The notes below the pieces were generated by a model. The model saw nothing but the letters and a program-made list of their open reading frames with translations, searched no databases and was not told the DNA's origin. Source: Candidatus Omnitrophota bacterium (GTDB lineage: Bacteria; Omnitrophota; Gorgyraeia; Zapsychrales; Fredricksoniimonadaceae). Taken from it: 64,000 nucleotides of DNA. Location of the stretch: positions 216,949 to 280,948 of the forward strand of contig JBGAJA010000002.1 of the NCBI GenBank assembly GCA_044225175.1. Reading direction: 5' to 3'. Shown piece by piece: positions 15,001 through 57,000 of the stretch (within the stretch, counting starts at the first letter, position 1; every line of letters starts with the position of its first letter). A program made the position numbers and the translations under genes.

Positions 15001-18000
15001 TTAAATGATCCAGAGATGGAATTACAAATTCGTTTGTTTGCTTCATACCGCTTCCAGCCAATGGCCCGCTCAGCTCGCGGTATTATGAGATTTAGACAAA
15101 TGTATCAATTTCAGGCCAAGGTGAATTTCCCAACGAGACAATCCTTACTGGCTTTTGAGCAGTACAAAGAAGAAGGGTTAATGAACAGAAATGGCCTGCC
15201 AACCAATGGATATCAAGACAAGATTGATGCCTTGGCTGATGCGAAGTTTGAATTTATTGTTGGACCTCAAAGCTATGGAGAATATCTGGGTCATGTGACT
15301 AGGGATACATGGCAAGGATTGGCTGTAAGAGATATGAATCTCTTACTGAAATTATTCCCAGCGATGCAAATCGCCTATTTGCATAATCCTGATCGTGCCA
15401 TCGATTCTTATGCAGGTGTATCAGCTGTTTATTTAACCAGCCAAGAGTATGGGTCACTAGAAGAACAAATGCTGGTTTCCATCCAAGAACAATTGGATAA
15501 CAAGGAAAATATTACAAATCCAGACGTAAGAAATAGACTAAAAAATTCTCTTCAATTGTATCGATTTACAACAAGTGTAAATGGTGTGGAAACAGTGGTT
15601 GGTTATGTGGTCCGTAAGAATATTATTAAGTTGAACTCTCACTATTTTGCGGGTCAAGGTAAACCGGTTAACCAAAACAATTTGCTTAAATTTGTTCATG
15701 GGGAAATTGCCCAGTTAATGGATATCAACCAAGACTTCTATCTTGAAGAAACATTCAAAGGGCCAAATTTAGCGGAAGAGTTTAGATATGATCGAGATAC
15801 TGCCATTGTAGGATTCCCAGAAGACATCTTTACAGATGAGTTTTCACCAGCAGGTGAAGTTCATGCCTTTGGAGACCACACATTTACAACAATCACACAG
15901 CGTGTTTTAAACTTTATGGGAATTCGTTATCACTATGGTCATCCGGATTTTATCCGAACAATCTCCTTTAGACAATTAGGACTCTTTAGTGCTCCATGGG
16001 TCAATGAAGACATTTATGGTGCTTATAAGGCTACACTTTACGGTGAAAAAGTTATATTCAAGGAATTTATTCAAGCTGCTAAGGCTCGTGAAGTTGTTTA
16101 CATCGGCCTTGTCGGTATCTCAGATAAATTTGGCGCAGGCGCAGGTGAGCAAGCCATTGATCATAAGATGCAAGTTCTTAATCGATCTTCGATAATTGGA
16201 TTTTCCAGAGCATTCATGCACATAGTAGCTTCGATAGGATATTTCTTACGTAAACCAATTATCGTGATTGCAAGTGTCTTGTATTTATTAAATGTGGTGT
16301 TGTTTGGGTTAAGTTTCTTTGTCTCTTTCCCAGATGAATTAACATACGGAATGATAGGATTATTCTTATCTCAAGCGATAGGGTTGCCGGGTTATCTTCA
16401 ACTTGTCTTAGAGCGTATGATCATACCTAGTACGGTCAGATTCTTGAAACTATTACCCGTATTAGCTTTAACGTATATTTCTGTTCTTTTTAGCGCCTTC
16501 CAAGTTGGTGTAAAGAAGGCTTATGTCAATAGTGCAGATTATGTTGCAACAGGTCGTCGTGCTGGTCGACAACACATGGTGCCTTTTAAAGATACTCTAG
16601 GGTTAACTGGAGTGCATTTATATAACAAAGGAGATCTTTATGGGCAAGTCAATCTTCCTGGTATCGGCTGGCTTATCCCAGGAATAATGATTGTGACATC
16701 AGGACTCAAGTTATGGGCAAGTCCAGGATCGATTTGGTCTGCGATGCCTGTCTTCATGATTTTAGCCGGCATACTTGCGGTATTTATTATGAACCCCGGT
16801 TCCACACCGATTACATTTGGTATTCGTAAATTCTTTACGCAATATTTTGGAGAAAACCTCCCTCACTTCTTTGCTAAATTTGGGGCAGAAGCGCTTTACT
16901 TGAAAAACAAAAATTTAAAAACGACCGTATATGATCATCAAGGAATTGAATTTGGTCAAATCAATGAAAGAGCTAATACAAATGATATCAAGCTCGACAT
17001 GAAGAGATTCAAATTAGGTGTGGTTGTGTATACTGGCGCACTCGCCTTGACGATTTTGATTCTTATGAACGGCATTCCTTATCAAGGTTTATTGCTATTC
17101 CTCCTGTTGTATCCATTGTTAGGATTGGCTGGAAACAAGCAGTTAGAACGCCTATTAAAGAGTAAATACACCTTTAAAGAAATCTATAACGATAAAAAGG
17201 TCGAAATTCGAAATAATCATAGATTTGGACAGGGCAAAGAAGTATTTAAGAAAGTAGTTTTTGAATTTGGGTTAAAGATAAGAGAGTTTATTAATTTGTT
17301 CTTTGCAGGAACATTTGTCATGGGTTCTTTATTGATCATCGGCATTGTGACAGCAATTTTGATTAGTCTGCCTTATCAAATGGGAGTTCTCTTAAGAGCG
17401 TTGGTACCTAGCAAGATTGTTCCAAGATTTATAAGAATTTCTGGGTGGGTAGGTATGGCTTGGGTGGTTAATATCATAGCTTCCAATGTCGCTATGGGAC
17501 CATTAGGTATGGTAGCTATGTTAGTCTTTACTGGTGCCTTGTCTATAGGACTATTCACAGGCTCTCGCAGATCCGCTATAGAAAATATTAATGCCATGGA
17601 TTTTAGTTTCATCTCTCATCCAACTCAAGCTGGTCCAAGCAGAAAAATTAATCGAAGAGTTGCCATGGGGACTATTTCAGTTTTTGTGATTGCCCTTGGC
17701 ATTGCCAGTGTCAAAACAGGAATTGTTAACTTAAATCTATTTAATCGTGCTCCTGAGCAAACTACCCAATTAGAATCCAATACTTCTAAAGATATTCCAA
17801 ACGTTCAATCTCAAACTGAAGCTGTCACACCTTCTCCTGAACAATTGCAAACTACCGCAGCCCAAGAAGCCCAAAGACTTTCCAACGAAGTGATTAACAC
17901 CATTGATCCTCAAACCGTTCCAGGAATTGAAATTACTCCTATAGAAAAGGATTCAAAAGAATCTGTTGGCCCAACACCTGAAGAAGTGAAAGCCGCCGCT

Positions 18001-27000: not shown

Positions 27001-30000
27001 ATCCAAGGAGCCATTTATGCCGGCAAAATACTTAAAGGAAAAGGAAATAAACAGATTTACACCAAATTAGTGGATGTATTAGTCAAGAATGTTGGCAGCG
27101 GAAGGACACAGGCAGACATTGATTTAGCAGATCAATTGGTCGATCAAGTTGGAGGAGCGCTTTATCTGCATTTAGAAGGTAACGCTCAAGAAGTGCAACT
27201 CAAAGAAGATGTAAAAGCGATTTTTGAAGCACGTCGAAGTTTAATTGACAATCCAATCAAACGATTGGTTATCAACGATGTTAAGTATATGCTTTATGGC
27301 ATCCCAGATCCTCATTCCCGTAATGGTGCTTGGGTTATTTCCCAAGCAGCGTTGGATCAAAATATTTCACGATCCGTTCAAACAATTAAATCTGTCATTA
27401 TTCCATCGGATGATTTGACCGTCCAAAGTCCAGAAGACAGTCTTTATTTATCAACGATCAAGAAAATCATTTTCAACACCAATACATCTCCAGACATTGT
27501 GAAAATACTGATCCAAAAGTTGTTTGATTTGGATTATCCAGCTGCCCAAGATTTAGCCCAACAAGGCTTTGATTATCTAATTTCCAGTGATATCCGCGAT
27601 GCAGAGTTCAAAAAGAATTTGATGAGTGTACGTGCAGGGACCAATACAGAAAAAGCTGCCAAGACAATAGCCCAAAGATTGAAAGACCATGATCCACGTA
27701 TCCGTTCTCATGCAGCATTATTAGTAGGCCAGATGAAAGATGCCCAGCAGAGGACCATTGTCCAAGATGTGCTGAGTGCTTATTTAATTGAAACAGAAGA
27801 GGCGATCAAGACCCAATACATGCCATTCTTTGTCAATCCTGCCAACGCAGAAGGTCTTATTAATGAAATTGTTGCAATCCGAAGAGATGCATCTAGCCGA
27901 AGGATCATTAAAGAAGCCAATGATCTAGAGGTTTTGATCCAACGCCCACAAAAGATAGTTTCAAAGAAGGATGTTTTAGTATCAGCGCCTGCAGGACCAT
28001 TTAAATTCTCATTAGATCCTTATATTGATTTACCACATTGGATCCGCGGCAGCTGGTTTGATTCCAACACCCATGAACAATATACAAAGCTGCAAAGACA
28101 CATGAATACTCTGTTTAATAACCCTTATGGTTCTTTATTAAATGGAGATCCAAAATTATCAGAAGCCATCTCAGGCTATAGTGAAGAACAGATGTTAGAT
28201 ATTCTTTTTGGAAATCACTCTTCTTTGGAACGAGCTACAGCAGCCATTGAGTTGGGTAAGAGTCAAGGGGATGTTCGCAAGAAGATCCAAAAGTTATTGA
28301 TGATTGTGGGTACTCCCAAAGAAGGTGAACCTGTTGTTGATGAGGATGCTCAAGTGGTGGATGCAGCATTGTGGGCTATTGCAACACTTCCGAAAGATCC
28401 GCAAGGAGGAAACTATCTACCAGCCAATATTTTTAAAGATTTGGTTTTAAATAAACATACTGATCAAACACGAATCTTAGCCCTATTGGCTTTACGACAG
28501 TCGACTGATATTCAAAAAGACCAGAAATTAGCAGAAATCATTGATTTATTAGCTAAAGATACAAGAAGTGTATTGACTTTGACAGCAGCGCTTGAAGTTG
28601 CCAGCCAATCCAATAGCACAGATGTTGCAGGTGCAGTGATTAATGTGTATAGCCACAGCGTGCGTAATCCATGGGCATTGGTACATCCAACTTTCATGCA
28701 TTTGACACAATTGCGAGACATTGTAGGAGTACCTGGAGCAATGGCCTATCAGGCAATTATGAAGATGGCTCAAGTTAACCATAATGAAGCTGAGATTGCC
28801 AATATCATTAAGACTCAAATTAGTAATAAAGTCATTGAAAGTGATTTTGCCACTATCTCCCGACAACTGTTACCTTTATTAAGAACAGTATCACTAAAAG
28901 ATGCATCTGTAGTTTATGACAATGGAGCTGCTACCCAGGAACAAGGGGTTTTATACAACCACTGGTTTGATGTTGAAATTGCCGATCCATTCTTAAGAAA
29001 TTTACACTGGTTTTTTGTGATGATTGGATTAGGCATATGGTCGTTTAAATACTTTAAAAATCGAAGAGTGCAGAACTTAGAAAGTGATGATTTTGACCAA
29101 CCCACTCCTCAACTAATTCCTAATGTTTCAACTAGTGAAGAGAATACAAAACTTCTGGGTAGGGCCAATGGAAAACCAAAAACATCGATCCAAATTCTTA
29201 ATGATAAACTTAAACTATGGCGGGAGATTTTAAATGCCCGACGCCAACTATGGAAAGCTGGACATCATCAACAAGCCCTTCTTACCGAATATAAGTTGGG
29301 GGTCATTTTAAATCAGATCTATCGTATTTTAGACATAACCTACCCAGATGAAGTTCAGGAAATTGTGGTTAATGAAAAGAAAATAGGCAACGTTTATGGC
29401 AGGATCATTGTTTTAATCGGCGAGACATTGAAGTTTTTGGATGAACAGCTTGATCCCAAGCATAAACATCTTTGGGATGACAATACTCGTTTAAGAATCC
29501 GTATGCTGGTAGCCGAATTCAAAGTCTTAGAAGAACAGATTATTCCTTATCGTGAAGCCATGATGTCTTTGCACAAAGTGCTTCTTTTGAAAGAAAGGAG
29601 ATTTTCTGTTTATAAAGGTGAAGGATGGATGAGTGTATGGAAGAATTTTGCAGAAGGCATTGTTTTAAAGTTTCCAGGATTTCAGTATAAAAGACAGATT
29701 GAAATGAGCATCAGAGAATTTATGAAAAGATTGGACATATTACTTGGAGACAATGACAGAAAACCAGAAATAATATCTAAATGGAGAGGTTTTTTTGAAA
29801 ACGGTATGTACCGCGAACAAATTTCAGAAGGTGATCCTAGGATTGCGGATCCTTTTGAAGAAACATGGAAAGATCAAAGGATTATCAGACATATTTTTAC
29901 AATTGCAGCTGTAGTTCTGCTTGGTTATCGTTGGTTTATTGTCAAAGAGTTTGCTTGGTGGGACACCGCCGTCATCGCCACATTGTATTTCAACGTTTCC

Positions 30001-33000
30001 GCCTATCGTTCCAAAGGGTTTTTGGTCCGCACCATGAAACGTGTGAAAGAACTAAACAGGGACATTCAACAGAGAAATCAGAAACAGTTCGAATTAGAGT
30101 TTGGAATGTCCATGAAGGATTGCAAGCTCGATCAACTGGAATACGAAAAAATTCAAAGCCGTACGTCTCAAGCTGTGGCCATAGGCAATGGTCCTCAACC
30201 TGTTGTCCATATGTTCTTTGTGGTACTTGAGAAGAATCAAATAGGAATAGCTTCCCAATTATTAGCTCAAAGTATGAAGACTGATCAGTTCTCTGGTCTT
30301 TGGTCTGTTCCTATTGTTTTCATTCCACAAACTATTCCAGGCAAGGGTGGAGCTTATTTGAATGCCCAAAGTTATTTTGAGGGGGTCAATACTATTGGCG
30401 AATTATGGCACAAATTATTGTCTTCGGACGAAGTGTATATTTTAGGCAGAAATCTTTACAATGAAACTTGGTCTAATGTTTCTGTTGAACTTTTACGACA
30501 TTCAACAATTATCAACTCCAGTGAGAAGACAGATGCCATGATGCAAGGCATCACACCTGTCGTGGATAAACTCGGTCTAACATTGTTGCCTGCCACTGAG
30601 AATATGATCAGCTCCTTAAGACGCGACATCACCTTCTTAGAAGATAAAATGATGTATACCTACAATGAAGTCTGGACAGATAGTAAAGAAGGCAAAGGCG
30701 TCAAGCTTTTCTTGCATGCAGATGGTTTTCGTGTAGGGCGAGTAGGGCGTCGCGGCAAAATAGACTTTGGTTCCATGTTCCTGACACTAGATGAGATCAT
30801 GGCTATGGGATTAGGGTTTCTTAATTATGATATTTTGACAGGGGTCATTAATACCATCTATGAAAAAACAGGAGAAGCTTTAACTCAGGAAGACATCGAG
30901 GGCTGGAAAAACGAATTCATTAAAAGAGGGCTAAATGCTCGTTTTGATATTGAAGATAAAAGAAGACTATTTCCTGCTTACATAGGGGCCTGGCGAGAAC
31001 AATTAGATTCTCATAATCGTCAAATCTTTATTACAGGCTTGATGGACTTAGTTCGTTTTATTGAGAAGTACGAATTTCAAGACAAAGCTGATCAATATAT
31101 TGATGAGAAGAAGTGGATGAAGAGTTCATCCGAGAGAGAAACATTGGAAGAGTTTATCAAATCAAAATTAAATGTTTCAAAGGAGGATGCATCTCGTCTC
31201 TTAGGGGAATGGACCATACAAGAAGATTGGGCGACACTTAGAAAGATTTTATCGGACTGGAATTTTAAAATCATTGCGGACCTTTTTATTCCTATGATCA
31301 TGGCTTCTCATGAAAAAAGTCCTCATTCTTGGAATGATGCTAGAGGTCTTCGTGAAAAGTATCCAATCATCTATGACGATTTCTATTGGGAGGTCTTTTC
31401 GATCCTCAACAAAGCATTTGCCAACAGTGGAATTTCATTCCATGCTCCATTTGCCCCTTACTTTAAAAAGGCCCATTTTTATAAAGTATCTAGCTATGCA
31501 CTACCCACAATGATTTTAATGGCGCTCGCCATACCCCAAATGGTTCCAGCGCTCTATTTGCTTTTAGCATTATCTCTAGCTGGTGTTGCGGGTTACTTTT
31601 TGAAAATCCCAACAGTAAAAATATTTCATTGGCTTTTTGGTGCCCGGGGTGCGGTATTTAGAGCGATTTCATTTTTATTTGCAGCAAGAAAAATCATCAC
31701 ACCATTCTTAGAAATCCATTTCATAGATAAACTTTTAGCAGCCAGCAGAATCCTCCTCTTACCATTTTCAGGCACAACCCTTGGCTTATTGTATTTTAAA
31801 GGAAACCATTACTCTTGGATTGAACCAGTAACACATATCGCTTCTGTTGCACTGACAGGGTTGTTTTTGATCGAAGCAGTGATTGAATTGGGGTACATTG
31901 CATACAATCGGTTCTTTCACGCTAAGAGCAAGAATAAAAACCAGCCCTTGAAATCTTCTAAATCACCTCATACCTTGATCAAAACTTTAAAGAAGTGGAT
32001 CAAAGCAATCATGTTTATTGTTGGTGGTTTTATATTATTGGGAGCTAGTGTTCTTTTTAACAGTCCTGCCTTAGCTCATGCCGGGGAAGTTCTGATTAAT
32101 ACGGGTCACTTCATCGAAGCCGGTAAAGCGGCATCAGATGAACATAAAATGTATCGCAAAGTAGGGTCCATCTTTGCAGGGTTAGGCGCTTTAACAGGGT
32201 TTTATTTGGCGGTCATGGAATTCGTATTTAGATTTACAGTTCACCTAGAATCATTAAAAGAAATATTCCATCACCAGCATGCAGCGATTATTCACTTAAG
32301 TATTTTATTTTGGGCAACTTCTTCCATCTTTGGTTTGGTTGAAATGATAGGAGAAACAAAGGCCGAGAAAATTTTGGCGGGTAAGTCATCAAGAAACAGC
32401 TTTGATAGACCTTTGCACGCCGTAGCAGCCTTAAGCGTAGATGAACAAGTGGCTTTAACTCCCTCAGCTCGTACGATCAATAAAGCTGCAAAGAAATTCA
32501 CTCCAGGTTTGAAGTTCGTGGTTTTAGCCCTGCCAGCCCAATCCTACATGGATTTTCATGGTAAGACGCACGCTCCCAATGTGTTTGATCCTGTTGATGC
32601 AAGAGGAGTAAAACAAGAGAAAAAACGTTTGTACACATTAAGCAAAGTAACAAAGAAAATATTTGGGCTGGCTCCAGGTAAGGTCTTTAAGAATGTGTAC
32701 TCGTCTAATGAGGAATCAACCGATCATGCAGTTGCAAGCTTAGGTGTAGAGGGGGCGCTTATTGGCGCGAATCGTTATGATGTTCCTCGTTTTTATCACT
32801 TTGGAGGTATTTTAAGAAAAGATGCGAGGCGAATTGCTCAAAATCAGTGGAGAAGATATCTTCAAGACCCAGTCCATTTTAATAATGGCCATTTAAACGG
32901 TCCTGACAGTATCAGAGCTGTTGAACGATTGATCGAAGATTGCGTCCGAGTTGACCATACCTTTATTGCAACTCATGAACTTCATGCGAAGCTGATTTTG

Positions 33001-36000
33001 GCTCGGATGTTAGGCATCCCTTATGAGAAATTGGCCCATCTTCACGAACGTCTAGGTGCTTTGTCTACAGGCACCCTCATTATGGTGGCTTTTAATCCTC
33101 AAACCAATAAAGGGGAGCTTTTATATGTGGATAATTCTTATTTGGGTAAAGGACTTAAAGAAAGATCGCCGTATACATTATGGGATGTTGTCATCAATTA
33201 TTGGCGCTATTATGGGTTAGTCCTACAGCGATATTTAGAAATCATCCACACAAAGATCCAACAAAGCTCTCGATTTCGTCGAGAGGAAATATGGGCGGTA
33301 CAACCTCCTTATTATGCACCAGAGCCTCCTAGCTTGCCTGAACCCATGAGCATCCAAATCGCCAGATTCACAGTTTCTATGACCAGACCCTCAGTGGCCC
33401 TATTTTCTTCAGATCCTGCTCGGCATGTGCCGGGGTATAGGGCGCCGACGATGAAAGAGGTTATAGATGAAGTACAGCGGGTGAGATCAAGTCAGCCTGG
33501 TTACTCACATCATCCTGAACAGTGGCCAGGAATTAATAAGGTCACGGAAAAAGAGAGTATTCAACGTGCCAGGGATAATATCCAACAGAATATTGATTTG
33601 ATTATAAAAAAAGAAGAGCATTGGCTTAAAAAGCGATATAAAACCAAGAAAGAAAAAATAGCAGCCATATTAGAGATATTTGACATCATGATCGACAATT
33701 GGCGTGATGGGCCTTTTGTAGGATTCTTAGGGACTATTTTTATAGAGAATGATGGAAATAAACGCCCGCTTGGGTCCAACCATTATCCTTACTATATGAC
33801 ATCCCTCCAACGAAGTGCCACATTTATCCATGAATTTGGTAATTATTTAGGCTGGTCTCATCAAGAAAATCAAGATTTGGAAATGCGTTTCTGGTCAGAA
33901 CATATGGGTGAGCTTTTTTCTACCACAGACCAGTCTTCTTATTCCTTTACATACCAGGATTTAGAATTTCTAGACAGCATTTTAAGTGAGATTGTCTTTA
34001 AGATTTCAAAAGATAAGAAATATCAAAAAGACATAGATACTCTTGGGATTAAAGAATCCATTGCTAACAGAGAGGTTCTAAGATCAAGAAGTTTGACTGT
34101 AGAAATTCTTTCAGGGCTGATTGCAATTAATAAGAAACGAAAAGATGGCGAAGACAATTCTACATTTAATGCAGTGTTATATAGAGCTAAAGAGGCTTAC
34201 TTTAGCCTAGCTGAAGCTCAAGAATCCGAATCAGGACGAAAGCCCTACTATGCCAAGGTATTGGTCATTCTTAACGTACTATTACATGCCGAGGATTCTT
34301 CTGAAGAATTGCTTAAGCTGAAGTACCAAATATTGAGTCGTTTAGGTCATCAAGCAGAAGCGTTAGATACCATTATGAAACTAATCAAGAAGCCAAGTAA
34401 GCGTCGACAAAAATCAACTGAAGCGATGCTTAGAGTAGATTTGATTGAGGCAACTAGGCGATTGTATTTAGGAGAAATTAGCGAACGTTTAAGACGCAGG
34501 AAGTATGCCATTGCTTCAAGGTTATTTTCTTTTGCCAAGCAAAGTGTGAATGACATTGAACAGCAGTCTTTGGGGATAGTTGAAGAATATAGAAGAAAGG
34601 GTAAAGAAACGGGAGGGATAGCTACCGAATCAGAAATTGGAGCATGGATCCATTTGGCAGACATACAGACGTTGATATCTCAAGTAGAGTATGAGTTCGC
34701 GAGCAATAAAGACTACGAACATCCGTTGCCAGACCAGATCTTAGAGTCTCTGGAGCAAGCGATTAAATCTTTGGAATATATAGCACAAGCTCTTACTGCA
34801 GCTCAAGAATCAGAAATTAAAAAAATAGGCGATAAGACCTTGGAGAAGAACTTAGATCAGTTGAAATTGATCTTAACCTTTATTTTTAATAACCCACTGG
34901 GCATGTTAAATATCCCAAGACTTGGAACATATTTAGAAGAGCTCAATAAAATTTTAAGCGCAGATATTTTCTTAACACTAGAGAAACAGCAGACCTCGAT
35001 CAGAGCCATTCGTGAGCTTAGAACAGATATTTTGACAAATATGGATGGGTATGGACATATTCAAGAAACAGTCCTTGGGTTTATGTGCGCCATGCCTCAA
35101 GAATCGTTTGCCTCCAAGGACGCTTTACGAGCTCAATTGCTCAGGGATGTTACAGAATATATGGGAACATCCTTATCTTCGGACATACACCTTTATGTGG
35201 ATGAAATGATGGAACATTTGCAAGACGACTTAGATCTACTGATTCTTAAAGCTTTCTTCTTTGATACAAAAGCAAAAGAAAAGAATCCCAAGGAATTAGC
35301 CGTGTTGATTCGTGCAGAAATGGAAGCTCGAGCAGAACAGAAGACAAAAGTTAACATGCTTCCTGAACATGAAATTTCCACTCTACTTGAACAACGTGCA
35401 AGCGAGGGAAGATATGAAGGGCTTGGTATCACTGTTGAACAAGCTAAAGAAGCGGAGGGTACAACACACATTCAGCAAGCTTCGCAGGACAAAAAGGCAG
35501 CAGAAGAGAAGGTCAAAAGTGAGGCCACTCTTCAGAGAAACGTTTATAAAGATCCCCGTATTAATGAATTTATAGAAGAAGATAAAGAGGAAATTGATTT
35601 CATCATTGTGATCTTGAATCTTATTAAGTCCTGGATGCCTAAGGAGGTATACGAAAGCTTTAAGGAAGATCTCAGAAAGATTGTAGATAGTTACAATATA
35701 TTCTGTGCAAACGCAAGAGAGTTAACAAGAATGAAATCTCAAGGATATCAAGAGGCAAGACAAAAGGCCAAAGCAGATAAAGATGAAGACGACCCTCTCT
35801 TAAAATTGCGAAGAGAGCTAAAAGACATACGAGTAGGTCTGATAGGTGCTAATGGATACCTCAGCGCCTACAAAGTTTTAAAAATGGTCTTAGAAAGCTA
35901 TAAGACTAGAGTCGAAGGATGGATCCGTCAGGGATTCAGACAGGTCCTTCAATACCAAGTTAAAATGGATGAGTTATATAAAAAACATCACTTCACATGG

Positions 36001-42000: not shown

Positions 42001-45000
42001 GTAGTTTTATTCTCTTCGCAGCGTCCGCAAGGCTTCAATAATCGCCCGACACCGCATAGTCAAACAGCAACTCAATCATCTAACAGTGAGTCGTACAAGG
42101 ATTGGAGGCTGTATGAAAGTAAGCCAACCCTAGAAAGTGTTAAAGAGATATTTGCATTAGCAGCCGATTTCTTAAGAAAGCACAATGACCCCAACATGAA
42201 TCTTGTAGATGAATATTTGGAGTATGTCCGGTCTGCTCGCGCAACAGATGGCATATATCTAGGTAAGATATTTGATCCGGACAAGAATGATATTCAAATT
42301 TATATTAATCCAGAAGCAGTTCAGCAGAGTTTTGTGGAAGCGCAAGATCATCAATCGGAATCCTTATTTGTTCAAAATATAGTTTCTCAAGTCGAACGTG
42401 AAGCCATAGGCCTTAGATTTTATAAAGATTTTCCTGAAGTATTGAAAATCAGCGCTCCTGTTGAAGAGGTCATGCTGCACGGAAGTGAAATTCTCCCAAA
42501 TATCGAAGCTTTACAGGAATTTTCTTATGACAATCGAGACATTATTCGAGGTGCTGTAACTCTAAAGTATGCTTTGGAATTCTTTGAACTGACCCACAAA
42601 TTAGATATGCTTGCTTGGGCAGAAAAGCAAGGCTTCTATTCTCCTGTCCAGACAGAGGAGAGTCATACATTTTATGACCATTATGTCATGAGGGACCAGA
42701 AGAAGGACTTATTTGCCCGCCAAACCAGTCAATATTTCAAAGAGGACATAGAGCTTCTATTAAGAAGGAAGAACTCTTTTGACCAAAGTAATTTTATCTT
42801 AATGGAATATGCTTTAGCCCAGCAGATGAGGTATGAAAAGACAAATGGCCAGGAAGGCTTCAATCCTCATTTAGAACAAGTATTACTAGGCAATGCAAAA
42901 GAAACAGAGCAGGATAAAAAAGATTTAAGAAAAGCCTGGGATGAAATTTATCCGGAAGTTCAAAACTTAGTAGATCAATGGAATGCAAAGATCAATCAAC
43001 CTACACCCAAACCCTCAGGTCATGGAATGTTAATGAACTTTACAGGCATGAGGTCCTGGATATTTGGATTAGGCTTGATCATTGTACTGTCTTTGTGGGT
43101 ATTTGGCACTCGGGGAGCATTGTTTAGGGAGTCAGACTTCAAGCCAATCAAAGTTTTATTAAGTGCAGCAGTTACACCAGGTTTTTTATTAATTATCTTA
43201 ACTACAACCGCTTCTTTCATTGCTTCCTTCTTAGGCTTTCAACGCGCCTATCTTGCAATTTTTATCATCCCAGGCGTAATGTATTTTTTACCTAAAATCT
43301 ATTTCTTTATGATGGGATATTATGTCCTAAAAGGTGAGGACCAAGGAGACATCAGAATTAGGTTTAGAAAACTAAATAAGGATCAATACCAACCGCAAAG
43401 CCCCAATAAGTTAGTTTCTTTAGCCATAAAAGATACCCATCTTAGAAACAGAAGCAGGATGACTGTGGTTGTTCCAAGCAGTATGGCGACGCAAGCAGAG
43501 TTGGAGACCATTCCAGAGGCCATATCTTCAGGACTAAAAGTCAAAGTTGTGCCTCATCGTCCAGGTTTATTAAAATGGAGTGTGTTTGGTTTGATAACAG
43601 CGTTCTTTTTAACTCTAGGCTCCTATATGTATTATCAAGGTCAATTATGGAGTGTGCTTCAACTGCGGATTCTGCAAGCCCAGACACAAGTTTACATGGA
43701 TGGTAGAGTTGAAGATAATTTGCGAAGACAAATCAGATACGAGTTTAAAGCCTACAGATCATTGAATTCTTCAAATAGAGAAGGGCAAGAACAAATCACA
43801 TTAATTAAGAATATATTAAGACTCAACGACGTATATTTAATTTGCAATATCTTGGCAGAGATTTCTTCTTCTGACCGTCGTCATTATCAAAAAGAACTGG
43901 AATGTTTACTGGATGATGATCGACATACGGCAAATACCTCTTTGCTTCATCTACGCATAAGAGACTTGGCTTTACAAAAAATGGCATATAACCAAACTGC
44001 AGCAGCGGTCATTATTGCTCATCTTCCAGAATGGAATGACCCTCAAAAAGATTGGCATACCCGTTTATTGGCTTTCCATATCCTATCAACGACCATGTCC
44101 GCCACGGATACTCAAACCATCGAAATTATGGCAGGTATGATTAATACAGGGTTAAAAGAAAACTATCCAGAAGGTTATATAACCCAAGGTCGAAATCTTA
44201 ATTTTAATGGCCATCCGTATCTTCCTGTGAATGAACCCTCCGTCATACTCTTAGAGGCGGTATTACATAAGAATCCGCAGCTTTTATATGATTCATCCAA
44301 TGATGTTCCTGAGGAATTAAAGGGAATCTGGAGGATTAATCGTCAGGACGATAGCTTACAGCCATACATTGTTCAATCCATATCCCGGCTTTTCGAACAT
44401 TTTCTAAAAGAAGGAAATGATCGAGCTATCAATGCTCTTGTAGATATTCTCAAAGGCCGTCAAGACCTAGTTAACGCTATGCTTGAGAACATTCAAGACC
44501 AGAAGAACCAAAGAATTATCAGAGAGAAATTTGATGCTACACAAGAAAAGGCCGCTAGGGTGGGTATGGCATTTATGTCTGCCAGTGGCGCACCTATTCT
44601 TCTAGCACAGGCCCCTTCCACCAATGCCTTCACTGCTTTTTCTTGGCTAGATATAGTTGCTGCTATAGGAGCCGTGATGTTATTGGGCCTCATCATTAAA
44701 GTCTTGTATGAAAACTATCACCTGCGGACGGTCAAAGTCGATGCATTTCAATTCAGTGCCTATATGGGTGAAAGTATAAGTGAAAGCGTGATTTTAATGA
44801 TGGTAGGGATTGTTTTATGGCTGATTAATGTGTCTCAACTATTACTGGTTTTCTTAGGCATCTTAAACAGTATTTTATTGGGTAATCTATTTCCTCTCAT
44901 TCAGGCTTATGGCGTGATATTAGGAGGTTCTTTTGTGGGACGAATCATTATTACCTGGTTCGAATACCAAATTAAACATACTACTGGAATTGATAAATTA

Positions 45001-48000
45001 TTTGCGATGTATAGAGAACAAGGGATTATTTCAGCCCAAGACAGACCGCAGGCATTTGTGTATTCAAGAAACTTTACAAAAGTCCGATTATATTTAAATA
45101 ACCCAAGCTTTCTCTTTAAAGTTTTTGCATTTCTTTCTGTCCCACCTTTATATGTAGGAACGATTAGATGTAAGAAAGAAGAACCGGCTGTTAGGTTGAT
45201 GGATCCAACAGATAAACTCAGCATGAGACGGGGAGCAAGTCCTTCTCTATTTATAGTTTTCATGGCAGGAATATTTTCTGTTGGAATGATGGGCACGATC
45301 GGAGTAATCATTATATGTTCGCTGATTCTAGCTGGGATTGGGATTTTGATAGTCAAGAGGATCAAAAGAAATGTTCTTCCCGCGCAAGGTTCCAACATCC
45401 TAGTATTTAATCCCCACGGAATCAATCCTATCGGCTTAGAGTTTACGGATTGGCTCATTAAAATCAAAAAGGATAGAAGCACAGTTAGCTTAAGCCCTGG
45501 CCATTTGGGTCTTTTTGATTTGGGCGGACTTGTTGTCCGAAGACCAGGAAGGTTTGAAAGTTTCAAAAAGATTAAGTTTATAACTCACAAATTTCTTCCC
45601 AAGCCTCAACTCCAGGGGTTGACAGGAAAGATGACAAGTAAGCCTGAGGAAATCGTCTATTTTTCAAGTTTGACAGGAGAAGAGCAAGAAGAGAGAGCCA
45701 TTGATATATTTGCGGATATTGCCAATATTGCTTATCTAGCTGACATTGCCAAGAGATTTGGGATTAAGAAATTCTATTATTATGTTCCTGTCATCAAACA
45801 ATCAACATTGTTGACAAGGCAAGTGATAGCTTTAGCTGCCGGTATTATTAAACATGATCGTTCTGTCCATATTGTTGAATTTAATCGTCTAGAAAAGTCC
45901 TTGGCGTCCCAAGGCTATCATCTTAAGCCAGTCACCAAAAAAAGGTATCCTGCCGATATAAAACATGATTCTGAAAAGGAACGTGTATTTGATTTCTTGG
46001 CAAGGATATCTACGATCGGATTAGATGAGCGCTTAGTCCAGCGTATCACTAAGGCACTTTTGGATGCAAAGATTAAAGAAGACTTTGGCTCAAGACATGC
46101 TCTTAATAAAGATAAGATCAAATGGTTTTCCCTTGAAAGCTATTTACCTGTCTTTGCTTTTTTAAAGAAGGCAGACCAAAACCTCCTTGATCTTCTTTTC
46201 AAACGCTGGATGCAATTCCATCAAAGTCATGGCAACCTCTTTGCAGAAACATCCCGTGGGTTCGATCTGCATAATATTCTAGATAAATCTGTGTTTAGCT
46301 GGATCAGTAAAGACCCTCCAGCAAACTCTTTTGTCTATCTTTATAAAGGGATCGACAGTGCAAGCAGGTATCAAATCCGTCCTCTCAGAGAACAGTCTCC
46401 TGTAAGTATGGATGATATGAAGTTTGTTGATGAAAGGGCAAAAGTAAAGAAAGCCATGGCCTTGATTGAACGAAGGATTAGGACAAAGATGAGGGAAGTC
46501 AATCGAATTGAAGGAGACAATGAAAGGCAAAGTAGGTTAAGAAGATACTATGGTGCCCATCATTTAATCTTGGATCAATTGACGATTATTGGAATTGATA
46601 GTCCTTTGCCATTGGTCTTTTGTGACATGGACCGTATGGTGGCCCGCATCATTCACTTAGGCCGTCATCGTTTAGTCACATATTTTCCTCTTAAGTTTAT
46701 TCAAAACAGCTCTATTGAAGAACTAGCAGACATGATTTATTACAGCATTGATTGGTTGACCACATTTCATAGACATAGACAAGATCAGCATTTCTTTGAA
46801 CAAACAGGAATAAAACCATCCGGTCATATGGATCCTATTATTTGGGACCCAGAACCCATTGCTGACATTAGATTACAGGAAATACTAAGTAAGCGAGGGG
46901 AAGTTTTTTATGGTCCTAAGAAAAGCAATCGATTTGGTGTTTCTTTTGAGCACCTCCAGGCTAAGATCTATAGCTTAATGGAAGACCATTTGAAGCAAAG
47001 ATACACATTGTTGCGCCGCCTCGTGGAACAATATAAGGAATCTCAAAATGGCATGCAGAGATATTTCCTTGAATTCGCTCAAGAAGGTCTATTCAGCGAT
47101 CAATTCCAGAATAGATCCAAATCAATCGCTACTCAAAATCGAGATGTTGCCAATGCTCTTTTAGGGCTAGGATATGTGACAACCGCAGATCGTTTGTACA
47201 CCAATGCACTGGCCATTGATAATTATTTAGTGATGGGAGCTAATGGTATCCAACCCACCGATACGCTTATCAGACATTTGTTTCACTTTTTGTATCACGG
47301 ACAATGGCAGAAATGTCTCAATACGTTTGAAACGTTATATTGGGGAAAGAATTATCTTGTCCGTTTTAATGGGCAGATTGTGAAAATCAACCTTCGCTGT
47401 CCTCCCACAAGTATTAATGGAGTACCCGTGGATGAAAAAATGAGGGAAGACTGGTATGCGCAGCTGGGGTATTCGATCTTTAGTAATAGAGATATTTTGG
47501 ATACTTTCTTAAGAAAGGCATATGACGTTTTAGACACATTTGGTTATATTTACTCGGATGATCCAAAACAATTGAAATTGATGGATGATTTTAAAATACA
47601 GTTACTCGAAAGTATTAAGCGTTGGATGTTATTAGCGCAAAGAGGGGAACTGGTGGGTGATAAACCTACAGAATCCGATCCTAATGTCACTATCATGCCC
47701 CCCCCTGTTGTTAAAAGATTACACGATCTTAAGAATGGTAAATCAAAAAAGGTATCCCATAGAAGAGGTCATGTATTGACCCCATGGTTGATGGGAAGTT
47801 TAATTGCTGCATTGGTTTTAGTGATTGTCCGTGCCGTTGTTCAAAAACGACGTTTATTAAACCATTTGAATCTTGCTCGTAATGAAGCTCTCCTGCGTGA
47901 ACAATTAGTTTTCAAATTACGCTCTCAAATCAGCCAAGAAGAAGCCTTCAAGTTAGGACCTATCTTAAAATCCTGGAATTTCTGGGATGATCCATCACCT

Positions 48001-51000
48001 TTAGAACACCATGTGTATTGGTGGAACTACTCTATGCGAGACGCTGTACTAGTGTTTTTACATGGAGATCTAGTTGGAGCATATTCTTTTAGATATGACA
48101 CAGCGGATTCCCCTGAAGATGCGTATGGGGAAGGTATTTTTGTGGTGGATTATTTAAGAGAGATGGGCATAGGGCGAATGCTAAGATGGCATCTTTTAAA
48201 TTATTTGAAAGAAAATAGCATTAAATATTTCAATATCCGAAGACCAAGACAAACTTTGGAAGCACAAGGTTTTCACTCCGCTTTAATTAAAGAATTAAAC
48301 TCTCATGAACGAGGTGTTAATTATGATGCGGACGCCCAGCCTCAGGAAATCAAAGTCCTTTTAGAACAATATGCTTTAAGGGATGTGTCGACTATACAAC
48401 CATATTTCCCTCCACGAAAACAATATAAAGATAACCCCATGGAACGTGTAATTCTCAGCACTCCGTCGTTTTATCATGAAGCCGTGGCCAGAGAATTTGC
48501 CCAAAGCCGTCGTTATCCAGCTTGGATTGCCAGTGCTGCAGTTTGCAACCATCCTTATATTTACCTGCCCTTGGTCCAAAAGATGTATGAGCGATTGGGA
48601 AATTTACGAGGTCGGACAGTGGCTGAGCTTGGCTGTGGTTCCGCCGTGGGAGTTGAAATCTTTAGAAGGATTGCGGATGCCTATGTGGTTGGGTTTGACT
48701 CTTATGAACCCTTTGTCAATTTTGCTCAATCCCATGGTTTGCCCGTCGTCCATAGTGACTTGATCTCTATGCCCGCGGATTCCGAAGAAAAATTTGAAGT
48801 AACATTCTCAGCTCGTCTTTTGGATGTGTTGTGTGTTTTTATCGATGGTGAACCAATAGAACTATTGCATCCACAGAAATTACGAACGCTTAAAACGATT
48901 GAGCGCATGACCAAAGGAAATGGACTCAGCATCCATCAAACCGAATACCCGATTCCTTTTAGCGATTCTGAAATAGAATCTACAGGTTTTCGCATCGAAG
49001 AAATCAATGAAGAACGAACATTAATGGTCCTTTACAAGCCTCTTGTTTCTACACACTGCATATTTATTTGTTCTTGTGGGATGTTAGTGTTAGCTGGAAT
49101 CACCCAAGATACTTGGCTGGCCAAGATTTCTCTTCTAGTCATGGTCGTGGGAGGGTTATTCGCCTATGTATTTTCAGCCCCCTCATCTTTCCAAACACCT
49201 ACTTCTGTTCAAGATTCAACAGAGCAGTTAATCAATGATTTAAATGGATTTAATGCAGAAAACTATTGGCAGCAAGCCAAAGATCTCCTCCAGCGACAAG
49301 AAATTTCATCAGAGACGAATAAAATACAAAAAATATATAAATCTATTCTAAGAGTCATGGTCATCATGGGAGTGGGTATTGGATTTGCTTTTTTATACGG
49401 AGGAATAATGATTTTTGTTGGTCCAATACCTGCACATAAGACAGCCTATATTCTTTTTACTCTTCTTTATGCGGCATTGATGGTTGTCCTTATTTCTAGG
49501 TTCTATATATGGATGGACATATGGGAATCCAGCATATCTCGATACCCTAATAATAAATTAAAAGCAATTCAAGAGCATAATCTTATCGTGATTAGAGAGT
49601 TGCAAGGTCGATTTGAAATAATCAGTACATTTTTGGATAATCCAAAAAACAGAGAGGTTTTAGAAGCCTTTAGGCTTTTATTGCAACGTGTAAATTTGAT
49701 CATTCGGCAGGATAAAGAATATGGAACTGCAACGATTTCAGAATACATAAGAAACATGCTGTCACAAGTAGAGGCTTTAGAAATAGTAATCCAAACTAAA
49801 CGTGCATGTGGCAAGGGAAATGATCGAAAGAGCGGGGTAGACCCTCAACCTTCGGAGTTTGTCAAACAGATGCATCAAGCATTAAATTCAATAGGCGCCA
49901 CAGTCCAGCTTAGTGATTTGAATGAAAGTCCTGAGGTCATTAGTTTTGTTGGAAGGCTTTTGTTGGACTACTTGGCAAATCTTTCAAAATACAGCGCTCT
50001 ACCCCCTGATTTAGTAAAATATGGCACGCTGCGTACAGTTTTGACTACACTTTTTAATCATTCCTCTGACTACCCAGATTTTCAGGATCTTCTCAAAGAA
50101 TTAAAGCAGTTAATCGATTCTCATTTAAAATCCATCAGCTTTTTAAACCTTTTTGGGTTACCTAGAGAAGAATTACTCAGAATCGTAAAATTGAGTATTT
50201 CTACCCATGAGCTTCGAAAAGAACTAGGGGTCCAGGATATGGAGGAAACAAAGCTTTGGCAAATGTTTGCTGGGATTATTCAAGAAATTCTAAGAGATAC
50301 CTTTCCAGTGCTGTATGTCACCAATAAGCAATTAAAAGATTTGTTACTTCAGATACAGGAGAACAAACCTCTAGAGCAACCGGTTGCCTTTGACACCCGC
50401 CTAGAGAATTTGCTGAAAGATCGCTTGAGTCCTTTGACTATCTTGAATACAAGTTTCCTAAGGACCATTCGTGAAACACTAGTCCAATATGGTTATCTTC
50501 CTGAGCCATATGGCGTGGTAAATATGCTTAGAACGAACTGTTTTTATAAGCTTCCACAATTGGGGAATAGTAATCAGCAAAAATTGTTACGGTCATTAGA
50601 AGGAAAAGGATTTGGAAAGATACGTATTTCATTCAAATTTCAAAATCAACCGGTTAATAACATTGGTCTTCTTTGGGAGAAATTAGAAAACATACAAAAC
50701 ATTTGGCTCGTTTGGGTGGGCCAAGATGAACAAGGGGACATTTATCATGCCCCAAGTGCGGAGGAATTAAATGAGATTCCTACCGATAGACTGATTTTAT
50801 TAAAAGATGTACCCAATAAAGAAAAAGCATGGGTAGGTGCAAAATCAGAGGAAAAACCATTATTACCTCCTCAAGGCAGAGCAGTAGCAGTGTCCGAGGA
50901 CGTTGTCAAAATCGGCTTTGAAATGGAAGTTCCTGAGCGATTAAAGAAGGTTTGGGAAGCTATTCGAGATCTCTTGGTCCAAAACCCTAGACGAGATATT

Positions 51001-54000: not shown

Positions 54001-57000
54001 ATATCTGTAACTTCACCTGCTGAACAACTACCTCAAGAGACCAGCCGAGATCCAGATCAATCGATAGATGAAGCTATCATCTGTGACAAAATTAAAGAGA
54101 TGGAATCGCTAAGAAAAATTGCTAAAAACCATCGAGATATTGAATTTATTAAAGGAATGTTACGAGATCTTACAGCACAGACCAGTTCAATGTCTCTTTC
54201 TAAGAAAACAAGAAAGCTCATTCATATGCTTCGAAAAAAAATTGATTCAGCTCGAGGGATTCCTGGTCAACAACATCCAAGTAGGAATGATGTGGATTAT
54301 GAGATATGGCGCATTGACACTGAAATCCCCGCCAGCGTAAGCATCATTAGGTTAGATGCACAAGATAAGTTTGCCCAAGGGGCAATTAAGGCGATTGCAT
54401 GGCTTAGGACTAATGGATTTATCGCGATGGCAGAAGTATTGGAACAGATATTGAAAGAAAATAATGTGGAGCGAGGCCCCTATAAAGGTTTCTTAGCAAC
54501 GACCCATTCTGTAGAAGCTCCTCGAGGCAATAGAGAGCTTTTCATCATGAAAATAAAATTATCAGATGCAGAAGAATATGCTCAATACTTAACTGTGGAT
54601 GAAATCGCCGCGAGTTTGATTCATGAAGTAGGTGCCCTTCCTCAGTTTGGTTTCTCGGATAGAGTCAATACCCAACGCCATCAAGATTTCTTAATGGAAA
54701 TTCGTCAAGGACGCTCTTTTTCTCTTTCACGAGCTTCAAGGAAAGAAGAATTACTCAAGAGCCTGCACTTCTTGTGGAGATATGTGGTTGCAGATAATGA
54801 AGCAGCGATCCAAAATGTTTTAAGTCAATGGAAAGAAAAGGGCTACAAAGTTGGGACATTCTGGCTGACAGGACGTGATGCAACGATGAACAAAGGCCAT
54901 GAAGGGACATTCTTTGCACATCCTAATAAGATCCTTCATGATTTAATCGTTTCAACATTGGATGCCCATTATGATCCAGCTCAAAAACCTTTAGCTCATT
55001 TTGCGCTTGCCATTGATGAGGTATTACGACGACCCAGAAATGTAAAATCCAGTTTTGCCTTGTGTGTTCTTGTGTTCGATGATCATGATGTGATCGTAGC
55101 TGTGATTGACAGTGAACAAGGCCTTAATATTAGCGATGAAATACAAAAAGAACGATCCAATGATGTTATTCAAAGTGCAGGACTAGGTATGGAACGGTTT
55201 TTAGAGCCCCATAGTAATAACGTGACAACGAGAATATCTTCTCAACTTCAAGTCTGGAAATCAGATCAAAATCGAACCTTCAACCGTTCTCAACAACAGC
55301 ACAATTTAATCTCTCAAGGTGTGTTATGGGACATGCAGCTTCTTTATGATTCTTTAATATTAAAAGTTGCTCTTACGCCACTGATCTTAGGATTTGGTAT
55401 TGCATGGATTGGTTTTGTTAAACTCATAAGCCTTAAGAGTCTTCTTATATCCATAGGTGGCGCTCTTTTTGTCCGTGCCGGAGGTGGAGTAGAACACCTG
55501 CATTTGTCTGCATCACTTCCTTCTATATTTACAATCGTTGTAATTGCTTTTGCTGCTTTTATGCTCATGGTCCTACCAGGCGACCAAGCCCCCGGGGCAA
55601 AACTTAAAAACAAACAAAACACTTTAAACAACCTCTTTGCAAAATCGAAACGTGATCTTGAGGCAATTTCAATGGATGATCCAAAGGAATTGATCAAAGA
55701 CCAGAATTGCTTAAAGATATTCCAAGAATTCATAGAAAAGATCCGATGGTCTTATTTATTGAGCTTAGCAAGAAAACCAGAAAACAAGGCCGCCCACTTT
55801 GAAGTCAACCAATACATGGCAGAATTAGTTTTAGAGATGCGAAAGGCTTTGATTAGTAGGTATCAAGAAGTGTTAAATAATTTAGATACTCAAAATTCAC
55901 TAGATAAAGAAGCTAGAAGGTCGATAGCCAGTGCCCTCGAATTGCAGATAAGAAAGCAAATGCATTTGATTGTGCCTGAACACATCGAGATTGCCGTTGC
56001 AGGAGATGAGGTGTTCTTCTTTTATAAAAAGATCATGGTTCGAGTATATTCAAAAGAGAAAGAACATCATCAAGAGCTGATTGAGCTTTTATTTGAGAAT
56101 AACAAGATTGAGTCTATTGCTGATGCAACGGATGCGATCAATGGGTATCAAATAAAAGTTTATGACATAGACCTTCAAATTAAAGTTGGGCTGCAATTAT
56201 TCTTAAAAACAAAGCTAGAAAGTTTCGAACAACAGATTTTAGATCAGTTGGAAAAATCTCAAAGTGAACCTAGGACAGAATCACCAGATCGGCATGATTT
56301 TGCTATCCAGGGATTTGCCTCGCTGCTTTTGACCAATCAAAATCTCAGAGTATTCTTTAAGAAAGCCTTAGGCAAATATTTTAAGCCATTGTTCCAGTGC
56401 ACCTTAAACATGAAAAGTATTTCACCTGAATTAAGAAAGAAAGCCTTAGCTGCAATTGGTGCTTATTTTCTTTTAAAGCCAGAGCAAGTACGACTTTCAG
56501 ATATGGATTCTGCAGAACATCTAGTATTTGATGGCTTTGCAGGGCAGGATGTTCCAGGACGATGGCAAGCCATGCCAGGACATGAAAAGGATAAATTGCC
56601 TGTTATCATCGTGATTACCCCTCAGATACCTGAAGGATTAACACAAACTATCCAAAGACATTTTAAGACCCATATTTTATATCTGAACATCACAGCAGTG
56701 ACTACCCAAGGAGTTGAATACAATAGCCTGGGGCACATAGAAAGTACTAATCTTCAATATGTGTTTAATCAATTAAAGCAACGTTTAGATGTTTTAAAAG
56801 ATGACAATGTTGTTATTGCTTCTGGACAATCAGCGGCATCTGCTCTTTTATGCATAAGAAAGGCATGGGACATTCTTCCTATGGCAATGAGATACAATGA
56901 TAGTTCGCTTATCTTGGATAATTTTATTGATGACTATCATACGTATCTAAGAAGAAAATTAAGAGAACTTGATGGGCTCATAGATGAAGAAACTGCAACG

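Follow-up and report, generated by a model that had tools for sequence, protein, structure and literature searches.

The 64,000-nucleotide stretch of DNA analyzed here (the window; contig JBGAJA010000002.1 of assembly GCA_044225175.1, positions 216,949 to 280,948 of the forward strand), taken from the genome of a Candidatus Omnitrophota bacterium, encodes a string of residues, HEFGNYLGWSH, that resembles the zinc-binding signature of matrixins and raises the question of what kind of domain surrounds it. A preliminary description had interpreted this string as the mark of a degenerate metzincin, in which the second His ligand is replaced by Asn and a downstream Met takes the place of the Met-turn, and had proposed that the protein either binds metal through an unusual ligand set or serves as a catalytically dead scaffold. 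Our results indicate that the string belongs to a divergent copy of a different domain, the HExGA module, which recurs in giant proteins of the Omnitrophota and for which structural modeling supports a minimal zincin fold.

A matrixin-like string in a recurrent module

The sequence elements behind the matrixin interpretation were described correctly. HEFGNYLGWSH is encoded at nucleotides 33829-33861 (forward strand, frame 1; residues 11277-11287), and the slightly longer segment HEFGNYLGWSHQ (nucleotides 33829-33864, forward strand, frame 1; residues 11277-11288 of the open reading frame (ORF) that spans the window) is identical to the matrixin signature HEFGHSLGLSHS at 8 of 12 positions in a direct comparison. 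A Met (EMRF, residue 11295) is indeed found 8 residues past the last His of the motif. By itself, this similarity amounts to marginal evidence only: the 21,333 residues of the window protein contain no HExxH and a single instance of the relaxed pattern HExxXxxGxxH, which also arises in 3% of shuffled proteins of the same size and composition, and many windows had been scanned for the preliminary description. That a protein of this length contains such a string merely by chance is nevertheless so improbable that we reject this explanation, because a hidden Markov model (HMM) that lacks the window sequence matches the region with an E-value of 7e-17, BLASTP links it to modules of other genomes with E-values down to 3e-10, a second copy of the module is present in the window, and 45 copies with the same core are found elsewhere.

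The extent of the module is defined by its homologs. A phmmer search with residues 10801-11500 against 1.84 billion representative proteins returned seven matches, four of which cover the motif, and the aligned homologs share a conserved module of about 135 residues (span of about 135-165 residues). It starts with D-x-[AS]-R-P-L-P-G, continues with '...MA.YLEYLAKAGLIRAGPLEGFLAT.Y....EYILLSN.YPEYN...' and ends with '...AASL[IV]HEIGA...FN.[ST][HD].EN..RE..F'. Back-translated patterns derived from four canonical copies identified 27 loci in GTDB species-representative genomes, and one additional locus came from a metagenome. Nearly all of the 27 loci belong to metagenome-assembled genomes (MAGs) of Candidatus Omnitrophota, with a few bins being labeled otherwise. 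In six-frame translations of the loci, the HMM detected 45 modules with independent E-values (i-E) below 1e-10; 38 copies are contained in the alignment (A3) to which all conservation counts given below refer, while the HMM used to test the window was built solely from loci without the window sequence. The giant ORFs of about 20 MAGs carry 1-6 copies each, with 4-6 in locus L017, 4 in L009 and 3 each in L010 and L021.

Two copies of the module and a possible trace of a third are located in the window:

33403-33900, forward strand: module copy 1 (residues 11135-11300), divergent, containing the reported motif; window-free HMM i-E 7e-17, 47.7 bits
33412-33435, forward strand: N-terminal boundary motif of copy 1, DPARHVPG (family consensus D-x-[AS]-R-P-L-P-G)
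33829-33870, forward strand: core motif of copy 1, HEFGNYLGWSHQEN (family consensus S-L-[IV]-H-E-I-G-A-x3-F-N-x-[ST]-[HD]-x-E-N)
42037-42231, forward strand: degenerate sequence that may be left from the N-terminal half of a third copy (residues 14013-14077); HMM domain E-value 0.007, model positions 21-81 only
54202-54711, forward strand: module copy 2 (residues 18068-18237), nearer to the family consensus; window-free HMM i-E 4e-32, 97.3 bits; BLASTP E-values down to 5e-16
54244-54267, forward strand: N-terminal motif of copy 2, DSARGIPG
54622-54669, forward strand: core of copy 2, HEVGALPQFGFSDRVN, with a canonical HEVGA and Asp at the third-ligand position

Copy 1 diverges from the family far more than any other member. 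It matches the modules of loci L003, L008 and L018 with BLASTP E-values of 1e-7 to 3e-10, differs from the consensus at 13 of the 28 columns that are at least 80% conserved (with a median of 1 for the other copies) and carries insertions between the N-terminal helices. Despite this drift, it retains the first His, the Glu, the Gly, the downstream His and the invariant Asn of the core. The putative third copy directly follows a transmembrane (TM) segment and is not followed by an HExG motif, so that we assign it with low confidence.

Conservation and novelty of the module

The core of the module is highly constrained. Its first His is found in all 38 copies and its Glu in 37 of them, even though the copies retaining these residues are only 20-60% identical to each other, and the Gly at position +3 is invariant as well (38/38). 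At position +4, which corresponds to the second His of HExxH, the family has Ala in 36 copies, Thr in one and Asn in one, the latter being copy 1 of the window, while His is absent throughout (0/38). The downstream column that may provide a third ligand is occupied by His in 30 and by Asp in 5 copies (His or Asp in 35/38), with Tyr, Asn and Glu occurring once each; it is located at +12 in 30 of the 38 copies and at +10 in five, including copy 1. Three residues beyond this column, there is an Asn in every copy (38/38), followed after another three residues by an Arg in 34/38. The N-terminal motif shows a similar degree of conservation (Asp 36/38, Arg 36/38, Pro 37/38). In the form D-x-x-R-x-[LIVF]-P-G, it occurs twice in the 21,333 residues of the window protein, both times at the start of a module, and 31 of 38 loose matches in related ORFs are found at module starts, too. 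This essentially complete confinement to module starts argues that the motif is an integral part of the domain rather than a dispersed site.

No consistent match to a Pfam, NCBIfam or PHROGs family was obtained across the 38 copies, apart from isolated hits at noise level (Zincin_1 with an E-value of 0.07, and NCBIfam ZapA_metallo with an E-value of 0.045 in one copy). When the family profiles were compared with PDB sequences, a local match to RNase PH over 46 residues (E-value 0.004) was all that emerged, and the C-terminal half of the profiles gave none. We found no description of the HExGA module in the literature on HEIGA, HExGA or HEXXA motifs and on metallopeptidases of the Omnitrophota, and it is not mentioned in two reports on giant proteins of this phylum, whose text was searched for peptidases and processing (West-Roberts et al. 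2023, 10.1101/2023.11.21.568195; 10.64898/2026.06.07.730766). Judged from these sequence comparisons, the module appears to be an uncatalogued, lineage-restricted domain.

A predicted minimal zincin fold

To describe the fold, we used an AlphaFold2 model of a canonical copy (P0005, residues 2424-2569), calculated from an alignment of nine rows, the two window copies among them. The model has a high predicted local distance difference test score (pLDDT, 91.6) and a predicted template modeling score of 0.87, and all five models agree (pLDDT 87-92). After a short strand or bridge at R8-P9, it comprises three helices (residues 18-26, 41-52 and 56-67) and three strands (71-74, 79-85 and 91-96), followed by a helix (105-118) that ends with S-L-V-H114-E115-I-G-A118, a loop and a further helix (126-143) that begins with H126-Q-E-N129 and thus places the candidate third-ligand column at its start. 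Its closest structural neighbors are deuterolysin (score 7.3, 100 residues aligned), peptidyl-Lys metalloendopeptidase (6.9), the predicted zincin-like protease 3e11 (5.9), Wss1 (5.7), selecase (5.6), lugdulysin (5.4), the YbeY-type protein AQ_1354 (5.2) and, with scores of 5.0 each, projannalysin, AsaP1, ACE2 and an M3 peptidase. Consistent with this result, the seven best Foldseek matches in the PDB are all selecase (E-values of 0.03-0.2, probability up to 0.95), and the best matches among the viral models of BFVD are IrrE-like, SprT-like and BepA-type proteins. Although moderate, the scores are concordant, and the model supports the notion of a minimal zincin fold that is closest to the aspzincins and the minigluzincins.

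The model contains the sheet, backing helix, 'active-site' helix and C-terminal helix typical of zincins, which are also its nearest structures. From this topology, with one helix directly after the sheet and then the helix bearing the putative third ligand, we infer that the HEIGA helix corresponds to the active-site helix of zincins. What the module lacks is the HExxH motif with its two His ligands, since 36 of the 38 copies have HExGA and none has His at +4. The minigluzincins (selecase MJ1213, projannalysin and proabylysin) and the minimal zincins of the Wss1/SprT type, by contrast, carry HExxH plus a third ligand. They share no detectable sequence similarity with the module, lack its N-terminal D-x-x-R-P-L-P-G segment as well as its two extra helices, and are small free proteins, whereas the module is repeated as a cassette inside giant proteins. 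The aspzincins of family M35 (deuterolysin, 1eb6; peptidyl-Lys metalloendopeptidase, 1g12; AsaP1), which are secreted fungal and bacterial proteases, are characterized by HExxH and GTxDxxYG. The module contains neither the second His nor GTxDxxYG and is only 10-15% identical to them, but the first His and the catalytic Glu are retained, as is a His or Asp at the putative position of the third ligand of aspzincins.

With the matrixins and other metzincins, the family as a whole shares the fold of the zincin superfamily; any further similarity is limited to copy 1, in which 8 of 12 signature positions agree, with Gly at +7 and His at +10, and a Met follows at +18. A degenerate matrixin or metzincin domain, with the second His of HExxHxxGxxH changed to Asn and a Met-turn downstream, could draw further support from the fact that the Asn codon (AAT) is a single nucleotide away from a His codon (CAT) and from an archaemetzincin-like motif, ILHEAGHMKGLGHCRNDCIMNP (HEAGHMKGLGHC...C.M), near residue 2015 of the related Omnitrophota giant ORF L003 (DJVT01000010.1), which shows that metzincin-type modules do occur in related giants, though not in the window. 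However, an hhalign comparison of the family with this archaemetzincin-like segment gave an E-value of 0.16, and neither Peptidase_M10 nor any other metzincin or peptidase HMM matched the window segments or any of the 38 copies at E-values up to 10. The Asn is specific to copy 1, while the family state at this position is Ala. The H-E...G...H spacing, whose conservation among homologs had been named in advance as one of the points on which the matrixin interpretation hinges, is not a family feature, with Gly at +7 in 3/38 copies and the His/Asp column mostly at +12. The Met is found at the aligned column in copy 1 alone (1/38), and in the canonical-copy model this region is part of the regular helix 126-143, which speaks against a Met-turn. 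The modeled sheet has three strands, the HEIGA helix ends at +4, and the structure differs from the five-stranded, three-helix fold of metzincins. On the basis of the HMM searches, the conservation pattern and the structural neighbors, we thus reject a metzincin identity as very improbable and consider the HExxHxxGxxH-like appearance of copy 1 a coincidence, caused by a loop that is two residues shorter in this divergent copy. The alternative between an unusual ligand set and a dead scaffold, as posed in the preliminary description, was the right one for a protein with a predicted zincin fold, but the family concerned is another one, which appears not to have been described before.

A possible atypical metal site or pseudo-peptidase

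The best explanation that we can offer, albeit tentatively, is a module of HExxH descent with an atypical metal site and Glu-driven hydrolysis. The HExGA module would, accordingly in its origin, derive from an HExxH-type minimal metallopeptidase. Canonical HExxH mini-modules are encoded in related giant ORFs (L011, residues 1939 and 3537; L027, residue 219; L008, residue 3075; L022, residue 5505) and have sequences of the types 'RLFHELGH...' and 'VLYVNPNILRGPP..L..IFE.HE.LHL'. An hhalign comparison of the family with the 'RLFHELGH' modules placed HEIGA on HELGH with an E-value of 0.029, which is not significant after six comparisons and only suggestive of common descent; the other five comparisons gave E-values of 0.16-0.53. 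In the proposed scenario, the second His ligand would have been lost family-wide in favor of Ala, and the first His, the general-base Glu, the His or Asp at the third-ligand position of aspzincins and metzincins, and the invariant Asn would have been kept under selection. The cleft could then still bind metal through His, His/Asp and one further ligand, for which the conserved polar candidates are the Asp5 in the N-terminal motif, a carboxylate from the final helix and the invariant Asn129, an uncommon zinc ligand. The Glu would drive hydrolysis, for which a peptide in the giant protein itself or next to it is the most plausible substrate, and the Asn would simply have arisen in copy 1 alone, at a position that does not provide a ligand in the HExGA family. 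A functional site is favored by three observations: the putative catalytic residues are exactly those kept in the most degenerate copy, His and Asp alternate at the third-ligand column, and both the Glu and the third ligand have been replaced in a single copy. The latter (L010, residues 4341-4476) combines HDIGA, and thus a Glu-to-Asp change, with a His-to-Asn change at the third-ligand position, suggesting that these two residues work as a unit.

Several points weigh against this proposal. To our knowledge, all characterized zincins need both His residues of HExxH, and their His-to-Ala mutants are inactive. There is no fully conserved substitute ligand, with the Glu two residues after the third ligand being present in 22/38 copies and Asp5 in 36/38, and the third-ligand column itself is Tyr, Asn or Glu in three copies. 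Domains that are repeated many times per protein are, moreover, more often scaffolds than proteases. Finally, the evidence for the fold comes from the canonical homolog P0005 2424-2569 rather than from copy 1 of the window, and a single-sequence AlphaFold prediction of residues 11101-11400, the copy 1 region, reached a pLDDT of only 41. A serious competitor, to which we assign a somewhat lower probability, is a pseudo-peptidase, i.e., a zincin fold without catalytic metal that acts as a binding or docking element and organizes the neighboring enzyme units. It might, for instance, grip a linker or its own D-x-x-R-P-L-P-G segment, by analogy with domain I of anthrax lethal factor, the non-catalytic domain that binds protective antigen. 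In that case, the conserved His, Glu, Asn and Arg would serve in binding or form salt bridges. Lethal factor domain I and the pseudo-protease ADAMs are zincin folds that function as binding modules after the loss of zinc ligands, and domain I still has a Glu (YEIGK) although it is inactive. The Ala at the second zinc ligand in 36/38 copies without an invariant substitute, the many conserved Arg, Asp and Glu residues (D5, R8, R72 and R132) that could form a structural network, the presence of up to 4-6 copies per giant ORF and the restriction of the N-terminal motif to the module, which leaves no series of separate 'cleavage sites', are all in line with a binding role. This explanation does not readily account for the retention of the His (38/38) and the Glu (37/38) in such dissimilar copies, including the most degenerate one, for the His/Asp alternation that is typical of metal ligands, or for the joint loss of the Glu and the third ligand. 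Judged from their descriptions, lethal factor domain I and the pseudo-protease ADAMs also differ from the module: both of their His residues are gone, while the first His, the Glu and the His/Asp resembling a third ligand are strongly conserved in the module. On balance, we infer that the atypical catalytic site is slightly favored over the pseudo-peptidase, with the two being nearly evenly matched.

Other readings are clearly less probable. It is unlikely, if attractive, that the module represents a new catalytic zincin variant, which would bind metal through the first His, the His/Asp and a ligand contributed in cis by D-x-x-R-P-L-P-G and cut a giant polyprotein at or near that segment. A trans-acting protease with many separate cleavage sites is not supported, because D-x-x-R-x-[LIVF]-P-G occurs outside the modules zero times in the window and essentially zero times in related ORFs. 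Also unlikely is a non-peptidase metal enzyme on a zincin-like scaffold, such as a YbeY-like nuclease or an HExxH-type oxygenase with an Fe/2-His-1-carboxylate center, acting on a nucleotide or sugar-phosphate substrate connected with the adjoining enzymes. The module does have nucleotide and sugar-phosphate enzymes as neighbors, and in its stand-alone form (L026, see below) it is followed by sequence that looks NUDIX-like by eye, although Pfam finds no family in this ORF. However, most of its structural neighbors, and the best ones, are peptidases, the H-x3-H-x5-H motif of YbeY is absent from the module, and no specific evidence points to any such substrate.

The module as a discrete cassette

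Irrespective of its activity, the module behaves as a self-contained unit. Loci L002 and L003 are offset parts of near-identical giant genes (97.8% identity in the overlap), and two of their module copies, L002 residues 2202-2337 and L003 residues 1533-1668, located about 2,900 residues apart, are 87.5% identical at the amino acid and 89% identical at the nucleotide level strictly within the module, while their 150-residue flanks are only about 20% identical. This limitation of identity to the module identifies it as a discrete cassette that was duplicated or homogenized by gene conversion on its own. The ratio of nonsynonymous to synonymous substitution rates of this pair (0.32) indicates that the module is under purifying selection at the sequence level.

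The module usually adjoins small-molecule enzymes, including PRK/uridine kinase, NUDIX, HAD/PMM, UDPGP and GH77 domains. PRK/uridine kinase is located directly upstream of the module in P0004 and L009, NUDIX upstream in L017 and GH77 upstream in L023; a PMM/HAD domain is found between two modules in P0002, and UDPGP and guanylate kinase are located near modules in L017. In the window, a TM cluster is followed by a divergent histidine-phosphatase-like domain, a Pro-rich linker and then copy 1. A free-standing version is encoded in a Competibacteraceae MAG (L026; JAXMFU010000004.1, nucleotides 9968-11743, forward strand) as a protein of 591 residues with an N-terminal module, which begins 11 residues past the start codon with DPARPLPG. 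The ORFs beside it look like conjugation-type genes. L026 may reflect a horizontal transfer out of the Omnitrophota, and it provides a tractable small version of the module for experiments.

The giant protein encoded in the window

Frame 1 of the forward strand (nucleotides 1-63999) contains no stop codon over 21,333 codons, compared with 927-1838 stops in each of the other five frames. As the ORF is open at both ends of the window, the gene must be longer than 64 kb. The encoded protein has about 90 clustered hydrophobic TM-like segments in a Kyte-Doolittle scan and a Cys content of 0.2%, and it represents an interior segment of a giant membrane protein that is both polytopic and multi-enzyme. 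Apart from the modules, the following features were recognized:

~15598-16299, forward strand: Glucan_synthase (PF02364, GT48/FKS, eukaryote-type 1,3-beta-glucan synthase; residues ~5200-5433); Pfam E-value 2.4e-50, in two stretches
~27610-27774, forward strand: HEAT_2; Pfam E-value 9e-8
31498-32340, forward strand: cluster of hydrophobic TM-like segments upstream of copy 1 (residues 10500-10780; Kyte-Doolittle scan)
32482-33240, forward strand: divergent histidine-phosphatase-like domain directly upstream of copy 1 (residues ~10828-11080); phmmer matches to P0001, P0003 and P0007 (query positions 28-282)
33301-33345, forward strand: Pro-rich linker between the histidine-phosphatase-like domain and copy 1
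~47980-48230, forward strand: GNAT, weak; Pfam E-value 6e-4
~58672-59589, forward strand: PPDK_N; Pfam E-value 9e-16
~61620-61890, forward strand: methyltransferase, weak; Pfam E-value 0.01

The histidine-phosphatase-like domain has no direct Pfam match and was assigned through a homolog, P0003, whose matched stretch (residues 522-648) overlaps its PF00300 His_Phos_1 match (residues 439-632). The 5,000-residue segment from residue 9401 to 14400 as a whole is devoid of Pfam matches. The Glucan_synthase domain, which is located between TM clusters at residues 4377-4722 and 5412-5905, is unusual in a bacterial protein. A multi-TM region at residues 19923-20218 (~59767-60654, forward strand) is conserved with L023 (33% identity over 309 residues, E-value 4e-38), and a short conserved piece at residues 7850-8008 is common to the window, L024, L003 and L013; both are further conserved building blocks of the giant proteins.

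Giant multi-enzyme, multi-TM proteins of Candidatus Omnitrophota have been described previously (West-Roberts et al. 2023, 10.1101/2023.11.21.568195), among them the class 1 'multi-enzyme metabolic clusters' (10.64898/2026.06.07.730766). Like them, the window protein is encoded by one very long ORF, has numerous TM segments and combines metabolic, HEAT, glycosyltransferase, methyltransferase and PPDK domains in a tiled arrangement. It resembles the 'Archaeovorin'-type giants in its length of more than 21,000 residues, its many TM segments and its HEAT_2, PPDK_N, methyltransferase, GNAT and glycosyltransferase content. A SecA_DEAD domain has been reported for most full-length members of this type, whereas Pfam detects neither a SecA_DEAD nor a C39 domain in the part encoded in the window, in which the ORF is incomplete at both ends.

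Implications

Collectively, our findings define a domain that is absent from Pfam, NCBIfam and PHROGs and correct the tempting annotation of its most divergent copy as matrix metalloproteinase-like. The giant proteins of the Omnitrophota, which can exceed 20,000 residues, are mostly unannotated, and the 2023 report on giant genes states that information on cleavage points is lacking (10.1101/2023.11.21.568195). Should the module cut its host protein in cis, a processing site and its enzyme would be defined for the first time in bacterial giant proteins. In a broader sense, a recurring and sharply bounded protease-fold cassette between enzyme units is a candidate processing or organizing element of these proteins, and a zincin family that has uniformly replaced its second His by Ala, yet has kept the first His, the Glu and the His/Asp under selection, would represent either a novel way of building a metal site or a clearly delimited family of pseudo-peptidases.

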